Source of the DNA: Rhizophagus irregularis
Lineage: Eukaryota
DNA length: 64,000 nt
Reading direction: 5' to 3'
NCBI RefSeq assembly: GCF_026210795.1
Contig: NC_089435.1
Coordinates: 992,001 to 1,056,000, forward strand
Shown: piece by piece, positions 2,431-62,481 of the stretch
Position numbering within the stretch: the stretch's first letter is position 1
Layout of the letters: every line of letters begins with the position of its first letter
Program-made: the position numbers and the translations under genes
Notes under the pieces: generated by a model
What the model was told of the DNA's origin: nothing
Seen by the model: the letters and a program-made list of their open reading frames with translations, nothing else
Databases searched by the model: none

Positions 2431-3607
2431 CCAGGAATGAGCACTCTTTTTCATTGAAAATCATTTTCAATTCTTTAGCAGCCGGACTTTTTTTTTTTGA
2501 GATCACCTTTTCATTAATTCTGCACATTCAGGTATACTAGTAGTTCCTTTTATAATTTCTGGTCTAATACCTTTACAAATATCTAAATAAATATGAAAGT
2601 CATGAGAAATATTATGAAATTCTGAGACCCCTGATGTCAACTCCTTCCTATATTACTGTATAATGATACACATCAGCAGCTTTTGTACTATATACTGTAT
2701 ATATATATAAAACTACTCCACATATATTATTTTTTATGTTAGATTGATTAACTGGTTTACATAATCCAAGATCACTAATCATATTTCTCTATGCTATAGA
2801 AATCTCCAAAAACAAAATTTGAATCAAGGATTCCTTCATATTGAGATATGCATGATATAAAATTCTAAATTTATCATTTGGATTATATTTTATTTCTAAA
2901 ACTACCCACTGTTGGATGTATTACAATCATGCAAATTAATGTGTCTGGATTCCAAATAATGGGGTAAGATATGAACCATTTGATCTTTGCTGGCATTGTC
3001 AATGCAACTACTACGTTTATTAAAAAATAACATCAATCATTACATGAAATTAAAATATTTCTATAATTAATGACAAAGTTTAAAATAATTAATCACCTCG
3101 GTTAACTTTCTAAGCGCTATAGGATACTTTTCATTAAATTTAAGAAAAATTTTAAGATCATTTGCATCTTTATTATCTCATACATCAATTTTAAAAACCG
3201 TTCACTTTCGATCTTGTTTCTCATAATCCCAATGGTCTATAAATTCATCTAACCAAGTGCCTATATAAACTGTGCTAAAACCTTCTTGTGCAAGAAATTT
3301 AATATTCCTTAATTGTGCATAAGGGATTCATTCAAGTAACTCATATTTATTTCTTACTTTTAATTGTGATTTACGTATAAATTTATCAACATGTTCATTT
3401 CTACTAGTCCAATTACTAAAATTTTTCTGAAATCTTTTGGAGTTACATTTCCTTAAACCAATTATAAAAAGTATTTAATTTATTACATTCAGGACATAAG
3501 CCAAATTCTTGATTAAGTATTATGTGTTCGTGGATATCAAACCATCATCGGAAGAATCATTTGAGTTTGCAAAATTAATTTCTTTATCCTCATCAAATAA
3601 TATTCAT
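2431..3607 (-). pseudogene. TKL-type protein kinase pseudogene with a Cys-motif N-terminus
   Basis: Minus-strand pieces read MNIFDED, FGLCPECNKLNT, NFSNWTSRNEHVDKFIRKSQLK, FLAQEGFSTVYIGTW, ISDLGLCKPVN, TKAADVY and DICKGIRPEIIKGTTSIPECAELMK, broken by several frameshifts and stops. Confidence 0.85.
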
Positions 3608-17740: not shown

Positions 17741-20602
17741 TCAATCAATTTCATTTTGTTCATTTAATAATGTAAGAATCTTTTTTGCATCATCATTTCC
17801 ACCTTCGGCTGCTTCTTTATATAAATTAAAAGCCCTTTCCTTATCAACATTAACTATAATTCCATTATCATAATAATAACCGAGCTTACATTTTCCATTT
17901 ACACATCCTTCTTCGGCTGCCTGTTTATAATAACCAAATGCTCTAATCTCATTCCTATTTACACCTTTTCCTAATTCATAAATTTCTCCTAATTTATATA
18001 AAGCAAGTTTATCATTTTCTGCTGATCTTTTATACCAATAATTAACCATATTTAAATCATTTACTAGTTTTTCATTATCTTCATACATTAATTTAAGATA
18101 TTCCATTGCATTATTTTTTCCTTTTACAATCGCCTCATCATATAATATCATTCCTTTTTCTTTATCAACTTTTGTTCCAATTCCATTAACATAACAATAT
18201 CCAAGATGAAATTTTGCATTTACATATCCTTTTTCAGCTGATTTCTTATAATATTCAAATGCTTTATTTTTATCTTTTACTGTACCTATTCCTAATTCAT
18301 GACATATACCCATGTTATCACACGTAACTTCATTTTCATTTGTTGCCGCTTTTTGGAACCAATAATTGGCTTTTTCAAAATCTTTTTCAGTTCCTTCTCC
18401 CATAATATATAAAAATCCAAGATTATTTTGTGCATCTATATATCCTTTTTCAGCTGCTCTTTTATATAACTCAAAAGCTTTTATTTCATCTTTTTCAACT
18501 CCTATACCAAATTTATAATGATATCCTAAATTATGTAATGCTAATTCACACCCATTTTCTGCTGCTTCTCTATACCAATAAATAGCTTGTACTAAATCTT
18601 TTTCTGTACCTTCTCCATTTTCATATAAATATCCGATTTTACTTTTTGCAACATTAAGTCCTCTTTCAGCTGCAATTTTATACAATTCAAACGACTTATC
18701 CTTATTAATTTCAGTTCCAATACCTAAATAATAACAATTTCCAAGTTCAAACTGTGCATTTAAGAATCCTTTATCAGACGCCATTTCATAATATTCAAAC
18801 GCTTTTTTTTCATTCTTTTCAACACCAAACCCGTTGTAATAACAGACACCTAAATTATATTGTGCTGCTATAACTCCATTCTCAGCTGCTTTATTATGCC
18901 AGTAAACAGCTTTTTCTGGATCTATTTCTGTTCCTACTCCACTTTGATATAAAATTCCAAGATTACTTTGCCCAATATTATGTCCTCTTTCTGCTGTAAT
19001 TTTATATAATTCAAATGCTTTTGTCTTATCAACTTCAGTTCCAAGTCCTTTATCATAACAATATCCAAGTTCAAATTGAGCTTCTAAATGTCCTTGTTTA
19101 GCTGATTTTTTAAAATATTCAAATGATTTAACATCATCTCTTTTAACACTTATACCATGTTTATAGTAATATGCTAAATTATATTGTGCTATTTTACATC
19201 CATTTTCTGCTGCTTTATTGTACCAATAAATAGCTTTTGCTAAATCTAGTTTTATATATTTACCATTTTTATATAAAGTTCCAAGAGCACTTTGCGCTGC
19301 AGTCTGTCCCTTTTCAGAAGCAATTGTATATAATTTAAATGCTTTAATTAAATTAGTATCAACTCCAATTCCATTTTCATAACAATATCCAAGTTCATAT
19401 TGAGAATCTAAATATCCTTGATTAGCTGATTTTTTAAAATATTCAAATGATTTTTTTTCATTTTCCTCATTTTTATAATGAATACCTAATTTATATTGTG
19501 ATAATTTATTTCCATTTTCAGCTGATTTTTCATACCAATAAATAGATTTTTCTAAATCTTTTTCTATATTTTGATAATAATCACCTAATATATTTTGCGC
19601 TAATGAATATCCTCCTTCAGCAGATTTAAAATACCATTCAAAAGATTCCTTATCATCTTTTTTTATTCCAATTCCATTTTGATAACAAATACCAAGATTA
19701 TATTGTGCATGTATATTCCCTTCATTAGCAGATTTAAAATACCATTCAAATGCTTTCTTTTCATCTTTTATTATTCCAATCCCATTTTGATAACAATAAC
19801 CTAAATTATTTTGTGCATCAATATTTCCTCCTTTTGCTGATTTTAAATAATATTCAAATGATTTAAATAAATCCTTCTTTTTTCCTATACCATATTGATA
19901 ACAATGACCTAAATTATTTAATTCTATTAATTCTTTCTTTTTATCATAATCTATTTGATTTTCATTATTATTATTAGAACAATATTTATTTTTTGATTCA
20001 AAATATTCTTCCATAATATTTATTTCATCCTTACATAAATTTATTTCTAATCCATTAAAATTTTCAAATTGATTATTATATGACATTGTATGTTTCTTTT
20101 CTTCTAAATTTTTAAATTCTTTTATAATCAAATCTCTTTTATTTAAAATAATATCTTTATAATAATAAAATGATAATAAATATTTTGATATAATAATATT
20201 AAGTAATTGATAAATAGAAATTAAATTATTATTAATTTCATCATCATCATCATTATTATTATCATCATCATCATTTTTTTTAGTATATTTATTAATTGAT
20301 AATAAATATAATTTTAAAGATTTATCATCATCATCAAAAAGATTTGATAAATCATTATCATTTATTAAATCATAATCATAAAAAAATCCTATTAAACCTG
20401 AAAACCAATTTTCATTTTCTTCATGATCTTCCATTAATTTTAAAATTTTTTCATGATTTAATTCATTATTAATTAAATAATCTTGTACCCAATCAATTAA
20501 AATATTTTCAAAATTATTATAATTATCTATTTTTATTATTTGACGATAAAATCCTTTTAAAAATTTTTTTAATAAATTATTATTCTCATTATCTAAATTC
20601 AT
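17741..20602 (-). CDS. Sel1-like repeat (SLR) protein, 953 aa, intronless
   Basis: About 20 repeats of consensus AQxNLGxCYxxGIGxxKDxxKAFEWYxKSAxxG after an N/D-rich N-terminal region. Confidence 0.95.
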   Translation of the reverse strand: MNLDNENNNLLKKFLKGFYRQIIKIDNYNNFENILIDWVQDYLINNELNHEKILKLMEDHEENENWFSGLIGFFYDYDLINDNDLSNLFDDDDKSLKLYLLSINKYTKKNDDDDNNNDDDDEINNNLISIYQLLNIIISKYLLSFYYYKDIILNKRDLIIKEFKNLEEKKHTMSYNNQFENFNGLEINLCKDEINIMEEYFESKNKYCSNNNNENQIDYDKKKELIELNNLGHCYQYGIGKKKDLFKSFEYYLKSAKGGNIDAQNNLGYCYQNGIGIIKDEKKAFEWYFKSANEGNIHAQYNLGICYQNGIGIKKDDKESFEWYFKSAEGGYSLAQNILGDYYQNIEKDLEKSIYWYEKSAENGNKLSQYKLGIHYKNEENEKKSFEYFKKSANQGYLDSQYELGYCYENGIGVDTNLIKAFKLYTIASEKGQTAAQSALGTLYKNGKYIKLDLAKAIYWYNKAAENGCKIAQYNLAYYYKHGISVKRDDVKSFEYFKKSAKQGHLEAQFELGYCYDKGLGTEVDKTKAFELYKITAERGHNIGQSNLGILYQSGVGTEIDPEKAVYWHNKAAENGVIAAQYNLGVCYYNGFGVEKNEKKAFEYYEMASDKGFLNAQFELGNCYYLGIGTEINKDKSFELYKIAAERGLNVAKSKIGYLYENGEGTEKDLVQAIYWYREAAENGCELALHNLGYHYKFGIGVEKDEIKAFELYKRAAEKGYIDAQNNLGFLYIMGEGTEKDFEKANYWFQKAATNENEVTCDNMGICHELGIGTVKDKNKAFEYYKKSAEKGYVNAKFHLGYCYVNGIGTKVDKEKGMILYDEAIVKGKNNAMEYLKLMYEDNEKLVNDLNMVNYWYKRSAENDKLALYKLGEIYELGKGVNRNEIRAFGYYKQAAEEGCVNGKCKLGYYYDNGIIVNVDKERAFNLYKEAAEGGNDDAKKILTLLNEQNEID

Positions 20603-21549
20603 TTTATTTTTATTTCGTTTATGAAGAAGTCTTTTAAAAAAGAGGAAGAGAAATAATAGACGTACAAATTAAATTAACGTTACAATTAATAACTAATTAT
20701 AGGAGATTAAAACACTGCGCATAAAGGAAATAATAAATTCGCTATTAACCGCTGTAGCCACTGTCACACTAACTTATAATGGTAATTTGGCGGCTTGGCG
20801 CTTGTTGCTGCGGTATTGCTGCGGTATAATGAGAATTATTTTTAGGATAAACGTTTATCAAAATATGCAAACAGCCATTGCAGCCAGTCACACCAAGACT
20901 GTTGCTGCGGTATTGTTGTTTCACGAATCTGTACATAAATTTTATCAAAGAGAATTACTTTACGTTAATGGTTTTGATTGACGAAGGATTTGCTAAACAA
21001 GTTAAAGGCGGACTTCAATATTTTTATATTATTCATGAGATTAAATATATTTATTGCATATAAATATAATAATTTTATTAAATAAAATTTAAAATGTTTA
21101 TTATACTGCCGTACAGTAAAAAAAAAACTTTTTTATTCTGTCTAGACATAAAATTGAAGTCACATTTATTAATCCAATATGGAAGAATTTTATGCTTACT
21201 GATAATATATTTGAGATTATATAAAAATAAATGATAATCATTTCATTGGAACTTAATAATTACCTAAGATGAAATGATTAACCAGTTACTGCGATTTTGT
21301 AATAATTGATATACATTCCGGTTGTGTAAAATTTGTTTGTCATACAGTATATACATTGCAGAAACTTTTAAAATCGAAACCATATCGTGACCATGTCAAA
21401 ATTTTATCGTAGGAATTATAACCAAGACTTGGTCGCGACATAGTTTCACATTGCCACGATAAGTTTAATATAATCGTATGAGTAAAGTTACTGCATATTA
21501 AGAAAACTGTCGCTGGGTCATACAAGATCGTAAAGTATTAGTAAGCTAA

Positions 21550-28617: not shown

Positions 28618-31600
28618 ATGGGTGGTAAAGGTAAAGCATACAGTATAACATGAATAATAATATAAATTAGATTTATCAAAATTATTAAAACAAATTTGTA
28701 ATGTAATAAAACTAGTTTTGTGTGATACCAAAGAACATATAATATATGAAACAAAATTGAAATATTAAGATTTTTATTTATTAAATAAACTTAATTGGTA
28801 ATAATCAAATATAATTAAACCAAATTTGCAATTTAACAAACTAGTTTCCAGCAATATCAAAGAATTTGAAGAAAGTGGTACTGAAGAATTTGAAAGTAGT
28901 AGTATTGAGAAATTTGAAGGAAGTAACACCAAGGAATCAAAAGGTATATCAAACAAGCTGAAATATTAAGTTTTATTTATAAACAATTCAAATACTACTA
29001 GACTAACTATATTATATAAATATTATATTAAATACTTAGCTTGTAAGTTAATATAATTGAATAAAGATAAATTACTCATTAATTTTATTGTATTTCATAT
29101 AACTAAATAATTTATTAATGATTAATAATACTGTAGTTAGTAAGTTATCGGTTATTTAAATCTTTAGTCCTCTACTTTATTTATTTTACATAACATTCAA
29201 ATAACTAAATTCTTTGTCTATATAACTATTTAATAATTGATTATATTACAGATGGTAAGCTATAGTAATATATATATTATATTTATTTGTTTAATATTTT
29301 ACATAATTCAACTAATTATATTCTTAATTTAATTAACTAGATTGTAAGTAATATATATGATTTACAGTAAATACTTTTATATTATCTTTATATCTAACAA
29401 ATTAATAATTAATACTATAGGGTGTAAGTTATATGATGTCTATATTTATATTATTTATATAATTTAACTAATTTCTTTATTTGAAAAATTATTAAATAAT
29501 ATAGTTCGTAAGTTATTTATTTAATTCTATTATTACTTATTATTATAACATTTACATATAATTTAAACTAACTAATTTCTTTATTTAAAAAATTATTTTG
29601 TAATTATTTTAGTTGGTAAGTTATAAGTTATTTACTTAATTCTATTATTACTTATTGGTTATAATATTTACATATAATTTAAACTAAATAATTTATTTAT
29701 TTTAAAAATTATTTTATAGATAGTAAGTTAATTATTTAATTCTATTATTACTTATTGTTATAATATTTACATATAATTTAAACTAACTAATGTCTTTATT
29801 TAAAAAATTATTAAATAATATAGTTTGTAAGTTATTTATTTAATTATATTATTACTTTTGTTATAATATTTACATATAATTTAAACTAACTAATTAATAT
29901 AGTTTGTAAGTTATTTATTTAATTCTATTATTACTTATTGTTATAATATTTACATATAATTTAAACTAACTAATTTCTTTATTTTAAAAATTATTAAATA
30001 ATATAGGGAGTAAGTTAATTATTTAATTCTATTATTACTTATTGCTATAATATTTACATATAATTTAAACTAACTAATTTCTTTATTTAAAAAATTATTA
30101 AATAATATAGAGAGTAAGTTATTTATTTAATTCTATTATTACCTATTGTTATAATATTTACATATAATTTTAACTAACTAATTTCTTTATTTAAAAAATT
30201 ATTAAATAATATAGTTTGTAAGTTATTTATTTAATTCTATTATTACTTTTGTTATAATATTTACATATAATTTAAACTAACTAATTTCTTTTTTTAAAAA
30301 ATTATTAAATAATATAGCGAGTAAGTTATTTATTTAATTCTATTATTACTTATTGTTATAATATTTACATACAATTTAAACTAACTAATTTCTTTATTTA
30401 AAAAATTATTAAATAATATAGGGAGTAAGTTAATTATTTAATTCTATTATTACTTATTGTTATAATACTTACATATAATTTAAACTAACTAATTTCTTCA
30501 TTTAATTTATTTTAGTGGGTAAGTTATAAGTTATTTATTTAGTTCTATTATTACTTATTGGTTATAATATTTACATATAATTTAAACTAAATAATTTATT
30601 TATTTTAAAAATTATTTTATAGATAGTAAGTTATATATTTAATTCTATTATTACTTATTGTTATAATATTTACATATAATTTAAACTAACTAATTTCTTC
30701 ATTTAAAAAATTATTTTGTAATTTATTTTAGTTGGTAAGTTATAAGTTATTTATTTAATTCTATTATTACTTTTGTTATAATATTTACATATAATTTAAA
30801 CTAACTAATTTCTTTTTTTAAAAATTATTAAATAATAAAGCGAGTAAGTTATTATTTAATTCTATTATCGCTTATTGATATAATATTTACATATAATTTT
30901 AACTAACTAATTTCTTTATTTAAAAAATTATTAATAATATAGGGGGTAAGTTATTTATTTAATTCTATTATTACTTATTGTTATAATATTTACATATAAT
31001 TTAAACTAACTAATTTATTTATTTAAAAAATTATTAAATAATATAGAGAGTAAGTTATTTATTTAATTCTACTATTACTTATTGTTATAATATTTACATA
31101 TAATTTAAACTAACTAATTTTTTCATTTAAAAAATTATTTTGTAATTTATTTTAGTTGGTAAGTTATAAGTTATTTATTTAATTCTATTATTACTTTTGT
31201 TATAATATTTACATATAATTTAAACTAACTAATTTCTTTTTTTAAAAATTATTAAATAATATAGCGAGTAAGTTATTTATTTAATTCTATTATTACTTAT
31301 TGTTATAATATTTACATATAATTTAAACTAACTAATTTCTTTATTTAAAAAATTATTTTGTAATTTACTTTAGTGGGTAAGTTATAAGTTATTTATTTAG
31401 TTCTATTATTACTTATTGGTTATAATATTTACATATAATTTAAACTAAATAATTTATTTATTTTAAAATTATTTTATAGATAGTAAGTTATTTATTTAAT
31501 TCTATTATTACTTATTGTTATAATATTTACATATAATTTAAACTAACTAATTTCTTTATTTAAAAAAATATTTTGTAATTTATTTTAGTTGGTAAGTTAT

Positions 31601-34451
31601 GATAACCCAGAAAATTCTTCTATCACGTGACATGTTTATATTTGGGAAATTGGTTCCTTTTTTGGCTTTTTTGGTGTAATGATATTTTGCATTAATAAGT
31701 TATTTATTTAATTCTACTATTACTTATTGTTATAATATTTACATATAATTTAAACTAACTAATTTCTTCATTTAAAAAATTATTAAATAATACAGTTTGT
31801 AAGTTATTTATTTAATTCTATTATTACTTTTGTTATAATATTTACATATAATTTAAACTAACTAATTTCTTTTTTTAAAAATTATTAAATAACATAGCGA
31901 GTAAGTTATTTATTTAATTCTATTATTACTTTTGTTATAATATTTACATATAATTTAAACTAACTAATTTCTTTATTTAAAAAATTATTTTGTAATTTAT
32001 TTTAGTTGGTAAGTTATAAGTTATTTATTTAATTCTATTATTACTTTTGTTATAATATTTACATATAATTTAAACTAACTAATTTCTTTATTTAAAAATT
32101 ATTAAATAACATAGCGAGTAAGTTTAATATTTATTTAATTCTATTATTACTTATTGTTATAATATTTACATATAATTTAAACTAACTAATTTTTTTATTT
32201 AAAAATTATTAAATTATTAAATAATATAGTGTGTAAGTTATTTATTTAATTCTATTATTACTTATTGTTATAATATTTACATATAATTTAAACTAACTAA
32301 TTTCTTTATTTAAAAATTATTTTATAGATGGTAAGGTTTTTATTTAATTCTATTATTACTTATTGTTATAATATTTACATATAATTTAAACTAACTAATT
32401 TCTTTATTTAAAAAATTATTAAAATTAATATTAGGGGGTAAGTTATTTAATTCTATTATTACTTATTGTTATAATATTTACATATAATTTAAACTAACTA
32501 ATTTTTTTATTTTAAAAATTATTTTGTTATTTATTTTAGTTGGTAAGTTATAAGTTATTTATTAATTCTATTATTAACTTATTGTTATAATATTTACATA
32601 TAATTTAAACTAACTAATTTCTTTATTTATTTAATAGATCGTAAGTTATAAGTTATTTATTTAATTCTATTATTACTTATTGTTATAATGTTTACATATA
32701 ATTTAAACTAACTAATTTCTTTATTTATTTAATAGATCGTAAGTTATAAGTTATTTATTTAATTCTATTATTACTTATTGTTATAATATTTACATATAAT
32801 TTAAACTAACTAATTTCTTTATTTAAAAATTATTTTACAGATGGTAAGTTTTTTATTTAATTCTATTATTATTATTGTTATAACATTTAATATAATTTAA
32901 ACTAACTAATTTCTTTATTTAAAAAATTATTTTTGATCTAGCTTGTAAGTATCTCTATCATTATATATTTTATATAGTATTTATTTGTTAACTGAATTCT
33001 TTCATTTGAAAAATATCTGTTACTTTAGTTGGTAAGTTGTAAAATGTAAATTATAGGTTATTATATGTATTTATCCAAAAATTAAGACTTATATTATATT
33101 ACATTAAATTCCTAATTAAATTTTAGAGTAAGTAATAATTTGTTTTGTGTATATTATAATACAGTCTATAATATCTATAATATAATTTTAATTATTTAAA
33201 TTTATAGATTTGGGAAAAGTAGAAATACAATTATGGATGATTTTATCCTTGAAAAAAGATTAAGATGGATTCCTTATAACAAATTTAAAAATATTGAATA
33301 TTTTAGTGAAGGAGGATTTGGTACTATATACAAAGCTATTTGGTTAAAGAATAATGGAGATGAAGAAGTAATTCTTAAATGTCACAAGAATTTAAATGAA
33401 AATTTAAATGAATTTTTAAAAGAAGTATGATAGTATATTATTTCCATTTTTTAATTTAAATTAAAATTAATAAATTATTATTATTTTTTATAGTGGAAAT
33501 ATCATACAAATGTTTTAAGTTCGAATGATATTATATTTTTTTATGGATTTACAGAAGATCCAAATACTTCAAAATATATGGTAGTAATGGAATATGCAAA
33601 TAAAGGTAATTTAAGAGAAAATTTAACAAGAATAGTCAAAAATAATTGGAATCAAAAATTATATATGTTGTACGAAATTATTTCTGGACTTAGTGAAATA
33701 CATAAAAAAAATCTTATTCATTGTGATTTTCATGATGGTAATATTTTAAATCATAATCATGAGGATAAGGATAAAATTTATGTGTGTGATTTAGGATTAT
33801 GCCAACCTGTAAAATCATTTTTGAAAAAGTATGATGTTTATGGTGTAATGCCATTTATGGCTCCAGAAGTTTTAAGAGGTAAATCTTATACTCCAGCTAG
33901 TGATATATATAGTTTTTCTATGATTATGTGGGAACTTACATCCGGGGTACCACCATTTAATAATAGAGCACATGATATGCAACTTAGTTTTAGTATTTGT
34001 AAAGGTGAACGTCCTGAAATTATTGAAAATACTCCACAATGTTATGTAGATTTAATGAAAGAATGTTGGAATGAAGATTTATCAAAAAGACCATCTTCTA
34101 AAGAAGTATTAAAAATTATTGAAAAATGGATTTTCTGTCCTCCTTATGATGAAATTAATGAAGAATTAAAAAGCAACATTATGGAATTTATAAATGCACC
34201 AATTAGGCAGTATAACAATCTTGTTATTGAATCACATCCACAAGCATGCTATACAAGTCGCTTACTTGATTTTACTAGTAAAAAATTGAATGAAATGATA
34301 GCAAGTGAAGGTTTGAGTGAATATATGGTTAATTCGAAGCCATTAGGTATGTAATATAGTATATAAAGAAAATTAATCTTGCAAATTATTTGTGTGAAAT
34401 TAATTTTATTTAATATTTAATTATTTAGATATTAAAACAGATGAAAATTAA
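28618..34451 (+). CDS. Micro-exon protein kinase (TKL-type), predicted 45 coding exons and 440 aa: 28618-28630, 28845-28943, 39 x 3-nt exons (29040-33031), 1-nt exon 33127, 33208-33424, 33494-34346, 34429-34451
   Basis: All junctions are GT..AG and total coding length is 1323 nt with no internal stop. Protein: MGGKVSSNIKEFEESGTEEFESSSIEKFEGSNTKESK-AFNDWFLDIFWKISRMDIAREIAMDIVSIAMYGVDHHAFE-FGKSRNTIMDDFI..EGGFG..VILK..HCDFHDGNIL..DLG..APE..DIKTDEN*. The kinase part is near-certain; the N-terminal splicing is inferred. Confidence 0.85.
29040..33207 (+). repeat. Tandem array of ~100-110-bp intron + micro-exon units
   Basis: Each unit is GTAAG donor .. AAACTAACTAAT branch-point-like motif .. AG acceptor + 3 variable nt. 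The core (~29460-32940) is highly homogeneous; the flanking units are divergent. Confidence 0.95.
31600..31695. mobile_element. 96-bp foreign insertion in one array intron
   Basis: Splits the usual gtaagtta|taagttattt with an unrelated, GC-richer sequence (tgataacccagaaaattc..gcattaa). Confidence 0.7.
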
Positions 34452-51099: not shown

Positions 51100-52530
51100 G
51101 GTTAGGCGACTTAGGCGTCACCATTTTTCGCATCATTTAAAAATCAATCATGAACATGATTGCAATCTTGCACTGGAAATTATTAATGGAGCGAGACCAA
51201 GTATTATATCAGGTACTCCCTTTGTATATAAGCAGTTAATGACACAATGTTTGGAGGCTGATTCAAAGAGACCTGCTGATATAGGTTGTCTTTATAATAA
51301 AATATTTGAAATAAGAAATATTTATTATCAAAATAGTTTAAAGAACCCATGTGATGAACTACCATTCCACAAGTGTAATATTAATTTATATCATTTTTTT
51401 TCGATCAAACAAAAGTAGAAGTTTTATAACAGATTATGGAAGCCGATAAATTACAAGTAAATTTTATAACTTTGAAAATTTATCATCATTAAAACCTAAA
51501 AATGCGACAGAACGTACTAAATCATATTATTTGTGTGTTATATTTAAAAATATTGAACTAATTTATAAATTCTTTTGATTCGACCAAAAATAGAGAAACA
51601 AAGAGGTATATAATTTATTATTATAACATGACATGATATAGTAAGTAGTATTCATTAAAATTATTGATACATTTATAGCGTTTCATAGTAAACCTTATGT
51701 TTTTAATTTTTCTGATAGTAGTAAGTATTAAAACATTTATTTTTTTTTAATGTGATTTTCTTATTAATTTTTTATTGAATTTAGATAATTCAAGCACATT
51801 AAAAAAAGTACAGAGCTGTTTTGAGGGTAATTAAATTAACTATTATATAATAATTTGTGTTATTTAAAAGTAACCATTTTTTAATAATTCGATTAGACCT
51901 TAGTGTAAATTTGACAAACAAATTTAAAAAAATAAAGATAAATTCCAAAAATGGTAAGAAATCGATTGTAATTTTAATGAAAAATTGAAAATTATTAATT
52001 GACTTAAATTTAATTATTTGTCTAGATAAGAAAATGAATTATTCCAACAAAGAAACAAATAATAATATAAATAATAATCATTATAACATGAACTTCTAAA
52101 GTAAGGTTTTATTCTAATATATATAATGAAGCAGTAATTAAATTTTATAATTAGTATGCATATTAATAGTCATACTTATTAATAATTATACTTTTTTCAA
52201 ACAAATGATAATAGTGGAAGAAGGTAGGTATTTATTAAAATATATGGTATTGCATTATTACTGTACTGTACATGTAGTTTTTGATTAATTATTTAATTAC
52301 TTCAGTTGATAGTATCTCGAGTAAAGATTTGACAAATGAACAGTATAATTACAGGTAAATTATTTTAACCAATATAAACTAATTATGTCATCTCATTGGA
52401 TAGTAAAAAATAATCAAAAAATATAGTATAAAGTTGGTAATTGAATCTTTTTCAAGTTTAAAAAAAAAAAGATTATGTAGACATAATTAATTCAGAAGAT
52501 CAAGATGAGTTGGAAATTCCTGATGGTAAA
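51100..52530 (+). pseudogene. Kinase C-lobe and multi-exon C-terminal tail remnant
   Basis: EHDCNLALEIINGARPSIISGTPFVYKQLMTQCLEAD.KRP, SKFYNFENL..PKNATE, several short AG..GT exons (e.g. 51786-51827, 51897-51953), and SEDQDELEIPD; no N-lobe. Confidence 0.7.
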
Positions 52531-57820: not shown

Positions 57821-58183
57821 AATTTCTCTGTGTCCTAGATACTTATGAAAAATGGAAACAAGGAAAGGCATGACGCTGGTGATGAAAAACCTCACGTGAT
57901 TTTTCATGACATTTTTTTCAGGTCATGCTGGAAAAATCTTAATATTTCCCAACCAAATAATCAACATAGTTTCTAAGTTAAGTGGGCGTGCACTACATCT
58001 CAGCTTATAAACTATGTCAATCATTTGGCTGGGTGCATATTCCTGAAACTTTTCCGGTTATAGAAGTTGATCATCATAGAATAATATAAAAATGCAATAC
58101 CTCAAACTTAAATTTTTTAGTTTTTTACCGCATTTTCTGCATTTCTTGCTTATTCTAATTACTACGTTTATAAATTAAAAACA

Positions 58184-59648
58184 ATGTCTTCAAAATTTTG
58201 GGCAGAATTATCTAACGATTATGAAAAACTTTTTGAGACAGAAATTGGATATGATGTTATTATTTACGCTGGTGAAGAGCAATATGTTAAGGAAATTCAT
58301 GCTCATTCAAATATTTTATCTATTAGGTCTCAATACTTTCGTTCTGCTTTTTCTAATGAATGGGCTGAGAAAAAGGACGGAAAATTTATTTTCAAAAAGC
58401 CAAATATTTCTCCACAATTATTTAATATTATTCTTAGGTATTTGTAATGTTTATAATAATTTTTATGTTAAAAAGGAAATTCTAATTAATATTATATTAT
58501 TGTACTAAATTAGGTTTATTTATTGTGGAAATATTGAATTAAAGAATTTACAAGGTCCTGATGTATTGAAATTGCTAATTGCAGTTGATGAGCTTAATAT
58601 TCATCCTTTAGTTTCTCATATTCAAGAATTTTTGATTGAACACCAAATTGAATTTTTATACCAAAATCCAACTGGAATTCTTGAAACTGTTTATCAACAT
58701 GAAACATTTACAGATTTATGGAATTTCTGTCTTGAAAAAATTTGTGAAGAACCTAAAGTTTTATTTGATTCTGATAAATTTATTGACTTAAAAGCTCCTT
58801 TATTAGAATTATTGTTAAAAAGAGATGATTTAAATATGGAAGAAATTGAAATTTGGGAAAATTTGTTAAAATGGTGTTTTTCTCAACAAAATATGAAGAA
58901 TGAACCATTAAAATGGAATAAAGAAGATATTACAAAGATCGAGAGGGCATTGTACAGATTTATTCCTTTAATTCGATTTTATGATATTGAACCTACAGAT
59001 TTCTTTTATAAAGTTTATTGTTATAAAGATATCTTACCACAAGATTTAATTCATAATCTCTTAGAATTTCATATAGTTCCCAATATGAAATCTAAAGCTA
59101 ATTTGAAACCTTCAAGGAAACCTAGCATTAAATCAACCTTGATTGAATCAAATTATATTCCTATTTTTGCTTCATGGATTGATAAAATGGATTCTTCACA
59201 TTATAATAGAAAAAATATTCCTTATGACTTTAAATTATTATATCGATCAAGTCAGGATGGAAATGATGTTTTATCTTTTCATAAAAATTGTGATGATAAA
59301 GGAGCTACTATTTGGATCGCAAAAATCAAAAATTCTACACAATTAATTGGTGGGTATAATCCACTTAATTGGGATCAAAGTAGGTCTTACAAAACTACAG
59401 CAGATAGTTTTTTATTTAATTTTACAAATGAAAGAGATATTTCTATTGCAAAAAAATGTTATGTTAGTAAACCAGATAGGGCTGTTTATTGTCACAATAG
59501 TTTTGGACCAGCTATGGGTAATTTATTCTGTGAAAATAATGTTTGGACTTATAGAAATTATGATAATGGAAATCGTTATCCTAAAATAGGAATCCCAGCA
59601 AATTTTGAAGTAGAAGATTATGAAGTATTTCAAGTAATTAAAAAATAA
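58184..59648 (+). CDS. BTB/POZ-BACK-TLDc protein, copy 1; exons 58184-58437 and 58514-59648
   Basis: BTB, BACK and TLDc motifs (FKLLYRSSQDG..FHKNCD.KGAT..IGGYNP..DSFLF..FGP..DYEVFQV); one in-frame GT-AG intron. Confidence 0.95.
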
Positions 59649-61016
59649 AATAAAAAATTTAATTAATAAATGAATTTAGAATTTTGTTTCATCTTCTAGC
59701 ATTTTTTTGTTTATTTAAGCAAGATTTATATTCAATTTGAGTTTATGAAAATAATTAAGTTCATAATAATAAAATGTATACATAATTATTTGGCATAATT
59801 ATAGTACTCTTTATACAGATTTTAAGTGAGCAATATTAAATACTGTACTCAAATTAAGCTTTAAATAAGTTATAGAATAACCAATCTCAGAAAAAATTAT
59901 TAGATATTAAAATAATTTTATCACAACTTATTGCTATACTCCTTTAATGGATTTCATTTTTTATTATTTTTATGAATTTTCTGGCAAGTGGTTGAAATGA
60001 TTGAAGTTTATATTAATAAAATCAAGGCAACTTTAAAACAATTAACAAGATAATTCAAAATTAGCAAACAACTAAATTACTCTATAATGAAACTATCTAG
60101 ATGACCAAACTATTATCAAAAAAAAAATAAATTAAGGAAAAAAAATACATATTTACTTATTTTGAATGAAATTTTGTGATTCTATTTGTCCATAACTTTT
60201 CTTAATCCTCTATACTGAACCCATAGGTATTTTTATTTTTTGTGATTGAGATTAAGCAAATTAAATTTTATAAGTCATGAATTTTAAATTAGTAATGAAG
60301 GAAGTTATTAATTCGTTAATTTCGTTAAGTAATTATGTTCCTTAGGAACTTTAAGAGAGTGAATACTTGTAAATTAAATTTACAGTATTTTATATATTCT
60401 GGAATTAATTAATAATTTAAATTAAGTTATTCTCCATGCTTGGAGAAACTAATAAATTTGAAATTGTGGTACTTCATCGTGGAAATTTTAAATATTCAAA
60501 TTTAAATATGATAATATGTAAATCAAACTGAATTAACCGCTTTTGTAGTTAAAAATTATAATAACAATCACACATACAGTTGATAATTATGAAAGTGCAG
60601 CATATGGCCAGTAGATTTATTACTGAAAGCCAATCAAACAATCCACAAATAAATCTATCTAAATTAAACTACTGAAATTTACGGCGTTATGCACTAACAC
60701 GTGAAAATAAACAGTGACGAATAAGGTGTGACGAATACGTTTTTACTTACTAAGTCCCTCAGATACTTATGAAAAATGGAAACAAGGAATGGTGTGACAG
60801 ACGTGACAAAAAACAGTCACGTGTTTTATATTGTGACATTTTTGAAGGGTAAATCTTAATATTCCTGAAACTTTTCCGGTTATAGAAATTGATCATCATA
60901 GAATAGTATAAAAATGGTTTCGTACCTCAATACCTCAAACTTAAATTTTTTAGTTTTTTACCGCATTTTCTGCATTTCTTGCTTATTCTAATTACTACGT
61001 TTATAAATTAAAAACA

Positions 61017-62481
61017 ATGTCTTCAAAATTTTGGGCAGAATTATCTAACGATTACGAAAAACTTTTTGAGACAGAAATTGGATATGACGTTATTATTTAC
61101 GCTGGTGAAGAGCAATATGTTAAGGAAATTCATGCTCATTCAAATATTTTATCTATTAGGTCTCAATACTTTCGTTCTGCTTTTTCTAATGAATGGGCTG
61201 AGAAAAAGGATGGAAAATTTATTTTCAAAAAACCAAATATTTCTCCACAATTATTTAATATTATTCTTAGGTATTTGTAATGTTTATAATAATTTTTATG
61301 TTAAAAAGGAAATTCTAATTAATATTATATTATTGTATGTTAGGTTTATTTATTGTGGAAATATTGAATTAAAGAATTTACAAGGTCCTGATGTATTGAA
61401 ATTATTAATTGCAGTTGATGAGCTTAATATTCATTCTTTAGTTTCTCATATTCAAGAATTTTTGATTGAACACCAAACTGAATTTTTATACCAAGATCCA
61501 ACTGGAATTCTTGAAACTGTTTATCAACATGAAACATTTACAGATTTATGGAATTTCTGTCTTGAAAAAATCTGTGAAGAACCTAAAGTTTTATTCAATT
61601 CTGATAAATTTATTAATTTAAAAGCTCCTTTATTAGAATTATTGTTAAAAAGAGATGATTTAAATATGGATGAAATTGAAATTTGGGAAAATTTGTTAAA
61701 ATGGTGTTTTACTCAACAAAATGTGAAGAATAAACCATCAAAATGGAATAAAGAAGATATTACAAAGATTGAGAGAGCATTATATAGATTTATTCCATTA
61801 ATTCGATTTTATGATATTGAACCTACAGATTTCTTTTATAAAGTTTATTGTTATAAAGATATCTTACCACAAGATTTAATTCATAATCTTTTAGAATTTT
61901 ATATAGTTCCTAATATGAAACCTAAAAATGATTTGACACCTTCAAGAAAACCTAGCATTAAATCAACCTTGATTGAATCAAACCATATTCCTATTTTTGC
62001 TTCATGGATTGATAAAAAAGATTCTTCACATTATAATAGAAAAAATATTCCTTGTGACTTTAAATTATTATATCGTTCAAGTCAGGATGGGAATGATACT
62101 TTATCTTTTCATAGAAATTGTGACAATAAAGGAGCTACTATTTGGATTGCAAAAATTAAAAATTCTACACAATTAATTGGTGGGTATAATCCACTTGATT
62201 GGGATCAAAGTAACAGTTGGAAAACTACAGCAGATAGTTTTTTATTTAATTTTACAAATGGAAGAGATATTTCTACTTCAAAAAGAAGTTATGTTAGTAT
62301 ACAGAATTATGCTGTTTTTTGTGGCCCTAGGTATGGACCAACTATGGGTAATTTATTCTGTGAAAATAATGTTTGGTCTTATAATAATGGTTATGATAAT
62401 GGAAATCGTTATCCTAAAATAGGAATCCCAGCAAATTTTGAAGTAGAAGATTATGAAGTATTTCAAGTAATTAAAAAATAA
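61017..62481 (+). CDS. BTB/POZ-BACK-TLDc protein, copy 2; exons 61017-61270 and 61344-62481
   Basis: Tandem paralog of copy 1 with identical exon-1 peptide and the same intron position. Confidence 0.95.

Follow-up and report, generated by a model that had tools for sequence, protein, structure and literature searches.

A one-base exon as probable frame adaptor between a chain of three-base exons and a kinase exon in Rhizophagus irregularis

At recursive-splicing ratchet points, an acceptor AG directly abuts a donor GT, forming a zero-length exon that leaves no base in the mRNA, within very long introns. One step larger are exons of a single base. In Arabidopsis, the 1-nt exon of APC11 was tested by mutation, through a change of the genomic base (Guo and Liu 2015, PMC4674806), and another is described in plant VPS55 genes (Yu et al. 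2022, PMC8831610), in a source whose accessible text also reports a tendency of plant micro-exons toward detained upstream introns. Among fungi, 13 one-base internal exons in 13 genes are given for Coprinopsis cinerea (PMC12230235), and the Fusarium CYP621A P450 genes contain a one-base exon that serves as the middle base of a codon, argued by phase-1-to-phase-2 logic, conservation and RNA reads (Nelson and Syed 2026, PMC12940212). Codon-sized mini-exons of 3 nt, several to a gene, mark the nank (NACHT-ANK) family of Tuber melanosporum, here taken from the citing papers PMC4986451 and PMC10197012.

The window that we analysed, a whole stretch of 64,000 nt of R. irregularis DNA, contains on its plus strand a kinase gene that combines both kinds of exon. 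Read directly, the sequence at 33121-33133 is TTTTAG-A-GTAAGT, with the lone A at 33127; this base has the marks of a single-nucleotide internal exon, namely AG and GT flanks, neighbours of intron size (intron A, 33032-33126, 95 nt, GTAAGT..TTTTAG; intron B, 33128-33207, 80 nt, GTAAGT..TATAG) and a reading frame that requires it. Upstream runs a chain of 39 three-base exons (29040-33031), each flanked by AG and GTAAG and separated by introns of 76-112 nt apart from one of 204 nt, the core of the array being a tandem repeat of ~100 bp. Donors and acceptors are intact in all 40 micro-exons (the 39 triplets and the lone A), 38 of them having the donor GTAAGT. The last triplet (TTG, 33029-33031) donates the G of a Glu codon, G|A|A, whose middle base is the lone A. 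The first kinase exon (33208-33424; FGKSRN..WIPY..EGGFG..VILK) starts in phase 2 and is joined to the main kinase exon by a GT..AG joint, 33424-33494, found in all three RNA runs. The main exon (33494-34354, 286 codons and a stop) belongs to PF07714/PF00069, and the kinase frame is intact up to its stop codon; a protein search gave 1,170 homologues, the best of them 82-88% identical and named Rhizophagus irregularis.

The 5' end of the gene is a prediction by homology. A candidate first coding exon (28618-28630), starting with ATG and ending in phase 1, resembles the MDGK start of the relative P0004, and a putative acidic, Glu/Ser-rich exon of 99 nt (28845-28943), phase 1 to phase 1, lies 5' of the chain and has counterparts at the N-terminal ends of P0004, P0022 and P0040. 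Between them lies a homologue of a 27-nt exon of the relatives (VLCDT.., 28716-28742, end approximate), which has no GT donor where the homologues' exon ends and would have to be skipped for this gene copy to keep its frame. The stretch 28716-28770, in which this homologue runs on into a stop, resembles a decayed duplicate of the flanks of the next exon. The 204-nt array intron (31592-31795) owes its length to ~100 nt of unrelated insert just 3' of its donor.

Compared with ratchet points, the site shares the near juxtaposition of acceptor and donor and the stepwise removal of one stretch; in contrast to them, an A remains between 33031 and 33208 and both introns are short, so that it does not qualify as one. 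The nearest likeness is to CYP621A, as far as its accessible description goes: again a spliceosomal gene of a fungus, in which an exon ending in phase 1 is incompatible with the phase-2 exon after it and a single base lies mid-codon. Because the CYP621A base has that same place, our gene is not alone in spreading one codon over three exons. The CYP621A exon, however, has exons of ordinary kind on either side and falls within a motif conserved among orthologues (PMC12940212), whereas ours is preceded by the last of 39 three-base exons. It also belongs to a kinase family of many copies, whose members lack the one-base exon where the kinase exon is in phase 1. With APC11 and VPS55, as described in the accessible text, the site shares a lone base on which the frame depends and which annotation overlooked, followed by a conserved strong donor; those genes are known as one or two copies without an adjoining micro-exon array, the introns flanking the APC11 exon are longer, and the APC11 exon is supported by mutation where ours is supported by RNA of homologues and by sequence (PMC4674806, PMC8831610). 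The Coprinopsis cases establish one-base exons as rare but real in fungi, although they are scattered single cases with no array described in the portion available (PMC12230235). The Tuber nank genes, as the citing papers present them, are likewise an expanded family in a mycorrhizal fungus and contain several 3-nt exons (39 here), differing in their NLR-type NACHT-ankyrin host and in the alternative splicing reported there, against which we can set only a low consensus agreement (see below). We thus place the exon with the APC11/VPS55/CYP621A kind, working beside something like a nank-type array.

This setting appears to be new: our literature searches found no RNA-supported 1-nt exon placed next to a 3-nt exon, as the end of a long series of these, within an expressed, many-copy kinase family of arbuscular mycorrhizal (AM) fungi. 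Those searches, which mainly covered open-access main texts, returned no report of micro-exons in AM-fungal kinases, and none is contained in the accessible text of Manley et al. (2023, PMC10234402) on the long-read annotation of R. irregularis.

The reason for the exon lies in phase. Because the acidic exon has a phase-1 end and is matched in the N-terminal sequences of several relatives, the triplet chain is in phase 1, and read in that phase it stays open. Scanning 33032-33330 gave 15 AG dinucleotides; six exon starts open into the kinase frame before 33310 (33208, 33220, 33223, 33259, 33265 and 33307), all needing phase 2, and the earliest phase-1 start into the kinase is 33312, within the Gly-rich loop. 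The original prediction had read the 1-nt exon as the phase shift from chain to kinase, completing G+A+A as Glu and, behind an exon ending in T, T+A+A as stop; both codon readings are correct, and the shift itself is backed by RNA joints and by a pattern of conservation that follows kinase-exon phase. The motif by itself is modest evidence, suggestive and not decisive: YAG-N-GTAAG occurs once in the window against 1.31 expected, which is not unusual; within the 176-nt interval it arose in 122 of 20,000 first-order Markov resamples (0.6%), and bare AG-N-GT in 7,707 of 20,000. The RNA joints and the homologous loci carry the case.

RNA was taken from three polyA raw-read runs chosen by species label (X22 and X24 from one sample and X23 from another, all of one study), with reads placed at a cut-off of 85% identity. 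Reads with a loose end leaving 33208 numbered 237 of the 462, 306 of the 508 and 339 of the 582 placed reads (882 in total); a separate placement of the reads gave 238, 312 and 356. The consensus of these loose ends before 33208 terminates in ATG-CTT-TTG-A in all three runs, that is, in the last three triplets of the window plus A, and by our own parsing it divides into about nine successive triplets. Agreement with this consensus is only 0.56-0.58 over 30 letters, without per-position support, so that it does not give the share of reads that are exactly TTG-A; the low value could reflect mixing of paralogues or alternative splicing. Two kinds of individual joint add to it. Reads joining 33031 to 33208 with one A between (3, 2 and 0 in the three runs) all retain the intron before TTG, and these five alone would also fit a paralogue with a fused TTGA exon. 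Reads joining 33127 to 33208 across the 80-nt GT..AG gap (3, 2 and 1) all retain intron A, and these six show that, in the homologues, the donor of the 1-nt exon is itself in use. Only 3, 4 and 0 reads were at least 99% like this gene, so the RNA stems from homologous genes and not from this allele; in keeping with this, position 33221 reads G, not A, in 300 of 308, 358 of 375 and 393 of 409 reads. Splicing with the lone A is therefore shown for the kinase family, by RNA of homologues at 85-99% identity, and not for this allele. Within that scope, the junction that had been predicted, CTT-TTG-A followed by the kinase exon, is the junction present in the polyA reads.

These data also bear on whether a 1-nt exon exists at all. 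Phase might instead be fixed by a 7-nt exon that uses a GT four bases into the donor, by a fused TTGA exon, or by starting translation at an in-frame ATG in the kinase exon; such readings would account for the 'CK', 'GK' and 'RK' that precede FGK in public models of relatives, which fit 7-nt read-through exons, and for the many public models that start at MDDF. However, the read consensus ends in TTG-A, not GTAA, the six reads above pass from intron-A sequence ending at 33127 straight to 33208, the rise in depth comes at 33208, before the internal ATG is reached, and the separated A is present in the DNA of two related loci. We regard these alternatives as highly improbable, and as largely refuted for the kinase family. 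A 5-nt exon, AGTAA, spliced through the GT at 33132, was rejected separately, since it gives the wrong phase and no joint supports it. As a branch point for intron A we had considered CTAAT (33112-33116); this too was rejected, its A at 33115 being T in all 14 covering RNA reads and in the most similar related locus, L001.

Conservation was assessed by a metagenome scan with the kinase exon, which returned seven loci (L001-L007); the same scans of genome contigs and of viral contigs found no relative. Scans with the site pattern gave 86 and 10 further stretches, and since among the 103 loci only L001-L007 match the kinase exon, the pattern matches were set aside as chance. In L001 (85% identical) and L002 (60%) the kinase exon is in phase 2, and TTTAAATTTTAG-A-GTAAGT is present in each; in the three-way alignment it forms a block of 18 columns without variation, amid intron sequence that otherwise differs. 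L002 also has TTG ahead of the lone A. In L003-L007 (40-58%) an AG lies 38 nt before the anchor codon, needing phase 1. L004-L006 were left out upstream, being too short or having no micro-exon there, and the two readable loci, L003 with 18 triplet exons (177-1880) and L007 with 11 (69-1026), join their arrays directly to the phase-1 kinase exon, the last triplet being followed by a single intron of 74-78 nt with no 1-nt exon. Judged from the DNA of these loci (two against two), the 1-nt exon appears where the phase of the kinase exon needs it and is absent where it does not. The original prediction had proposed conservation of AG-N-GT in homologous genes as its check, and on that point it held: among the seven loci, the site is kept in both with a phase-2 kinase exon and absent from the two readable phase-1 loci. 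The sister subfamily without the exon thus offers a natural control for the exon's reason to exist.

We accordingly favour, at a probability of roughly 0.86, a real one-base exon that acts as a constitutive frame adaptor, taking the phase-1 triplet chain to the phase-2 kinase exon. Its support comes from two samples of one study and, in directly compared DNA, from two loci with the exon and two informative loci without.

A family feature may be real and yet a relic in a given copy, and we weighed whether this gene is unproductive, or the lone A the outcome of a deletion or of an assembly slip within one repeat unit. Pointing that way are the absent donor of exon 2, an Arg at 33221 where the family has Gly, the insertion of ~100 nt in one array intron, and a share of only 0.51 as the highest fraction of the gene's words in any listed sequencing run. 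Against it, the frame of the kinase and every micro-exon splice site are intact, and relatives' models without exon 2 exist (P0015, P0040 and P0220). The slip in particular was rejected: repeat alignment gave z = 0.2 for intron A and 0.8 for intron B against 15 for the core array introns, so that neither is a unit of the homogenised repeat, and L001 and L002 have the lone A as well; the dissimilarity to the array marks the site as an older, fixed boundary. This copy may be damaged upstream, at the exon 2 without a donor; as an explanation of the one-base exon, the relic reading has very little probability.

Of the original prediction, the exon itself, the reasoning from phase and the Glu codon spread over three exons were upheld; the further suggestion of an on/off or quality-control gate was not supported. 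A regulated gate would mean that inclusion of the A, or of TTG, is controlled and that skipping leads to a premature stop and a kinase switched off by nonsense-mediated decay. The consequence of skipping is as a gate would have it: in the gene model without exon 2, 435 codons are read with the lone A and TTG included, and a stop follows after 94 codons without the A and after 75 without TTG. Nine of the 39 triplet exons end in T and, joined to the A, would give TAA, and plant VPS55 1-nt exons are, per the accessible text, alternatively used in some lineages (PMC8831610). Yet any frame-shifting exon yields a stop when skipped, with no selection for regulation needed, few joins within the chain create a stop (11 of 741 ordered pairs), the GTAAGT donor is strong and the acceptor block is invariant in L001 and L002. 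In the comparison of included with skipped junctions that had been proposed as a check, inclusion gave the consensus in three runs, TTG before the A among it, and the skip product (a loose end at 33207) was absent among the six loose-end positions listed per run, as against 237, 306 and 339 reads leaving 33208. The smallest of the listed positions have 7, 8 and 10 reads, which bounds any one other position at 2.9, 2.5 and 2.9% (about 3%, in two polyA samples), with 22 further positions over several of which skip reads could be split. The gate claim is thus unsupported and, we judge, improbable; we retain some weight for it because the data come from two polyA samples, both of one study, and skipped RNA would be depleted by nonsense-mediated decay.

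How so small an exon is handled is suggested by the reads that retain introns. Few polyA reads retain intron A, and those that reach the lone A from it all stop there (13 of 13): by arithmetic from mean depths, the bin 33126-33137 holds 6, 3 and 4 reads, covering 33126-33127 only, and none of the three runs has any depth in the bins at 33138-33161. Intron B is mappable, since contigs of run X1, which are probably DNA because they cover introns, lie on it (summed depth 1,335, and 2,484 on intron A). From these few reads it is likely that intron B is removed before intron A; its 3' end is present in about 4 reads, so the order is not absolute. Removal of intron B first would glue the A onto the long kinase exon, after which intron A could be spliced like any other intron, its 3' exon now being of normal kind; already joined to the kinase exon, the 1-nt exon would never need definition as such. 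Intron A would in this respect be detained as the upstream introns of plant micro-exons are in the available account (PMC8831610). Since each run offers junction reads in the hundreds and intermediates can be seen, the handling of exons of 1-3 nt (order, intron definition) is testable on existing data.

The exon's origin may be connected with the start of the kinase exon, which in this subfamily lies 28 nt (9 codons and 1 base) downstream of its place in the sister subfamily; the 1-nt exon would make up the odd base of this later start. The phase-1 subfamily retains the QNF..WT part. In the window, a broken kinase copy without micro-exons (3150-3520, minus strand; in-frame stop, frame change) keeps an unsplit N-terminus, with a Cys-rich segment followed by FQKNFSNWTS. 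The one-base exon could have arisen by loss of AG from a three-base exon of the form TAG-AGA-GT, a triplet that occurs twice in the array.

Public gene models do not contain the spliced junction: it was present in none of the 352 proteins fetched in our protein searches, which gave no transcript-derived protein that has it. Among the 65 with the motif, R. clarus models included, 16 start abruptly at it, 10 have 'LE' before it and 9 'SK'. These patterns appear to fit the use by gene finders of the donor or acceptor of the 1-nt exon, patching the same phase problem. With the junction missing from all 352, the N-termini of many Rhizophagus kinase models are implied to be wrong.

The micro-exon chain is a larger story than the one-base exon. 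Since its 39 exons lie in phase 1, each codon is built from two neighbouring exons, and optional skipping would both delete and change residues. This allows a tentative extension, which we consider possible though rather doubtful: a splicing zipper running 3' to 5', in which the 1-nt exon would be the fixed start joined to the kinase first and the triplets would be added singly, with optional skipping giving a combinatorially variable N-terminal segment of the kinase. If so, a large AM-fungal kinase family with a variable N-terminus has been missed by public gene models, and about one in four wrong final joins would be eliminated by the T+A+A stop.

Several further observations were made in the window. 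On the array intron repeat at 32860-32967, X1 contigs reach a summed depth of 105,000-179,000, against 1,000-21,500 on the kinase exons, which suggests that the array intron unit is a high-copy repeat, summed depth being no copy number. An open frame of 975 codons (17741-20668, minus strand) is, from its sequence pattern, presumably made largely of Sel1-like repeats. A gene that we take to be BTB/TLD-like is duplicated in tandem at 58121-62481, each copy being followed downstream of its stop by CAG-ATTTTAA-GTGAG (59819, 62643), possibly a 3' UTR micro-exon. Near a kinase fragment, TAG-TA-GTAAGT contains a possible 2-nt exon at 51719-51720.
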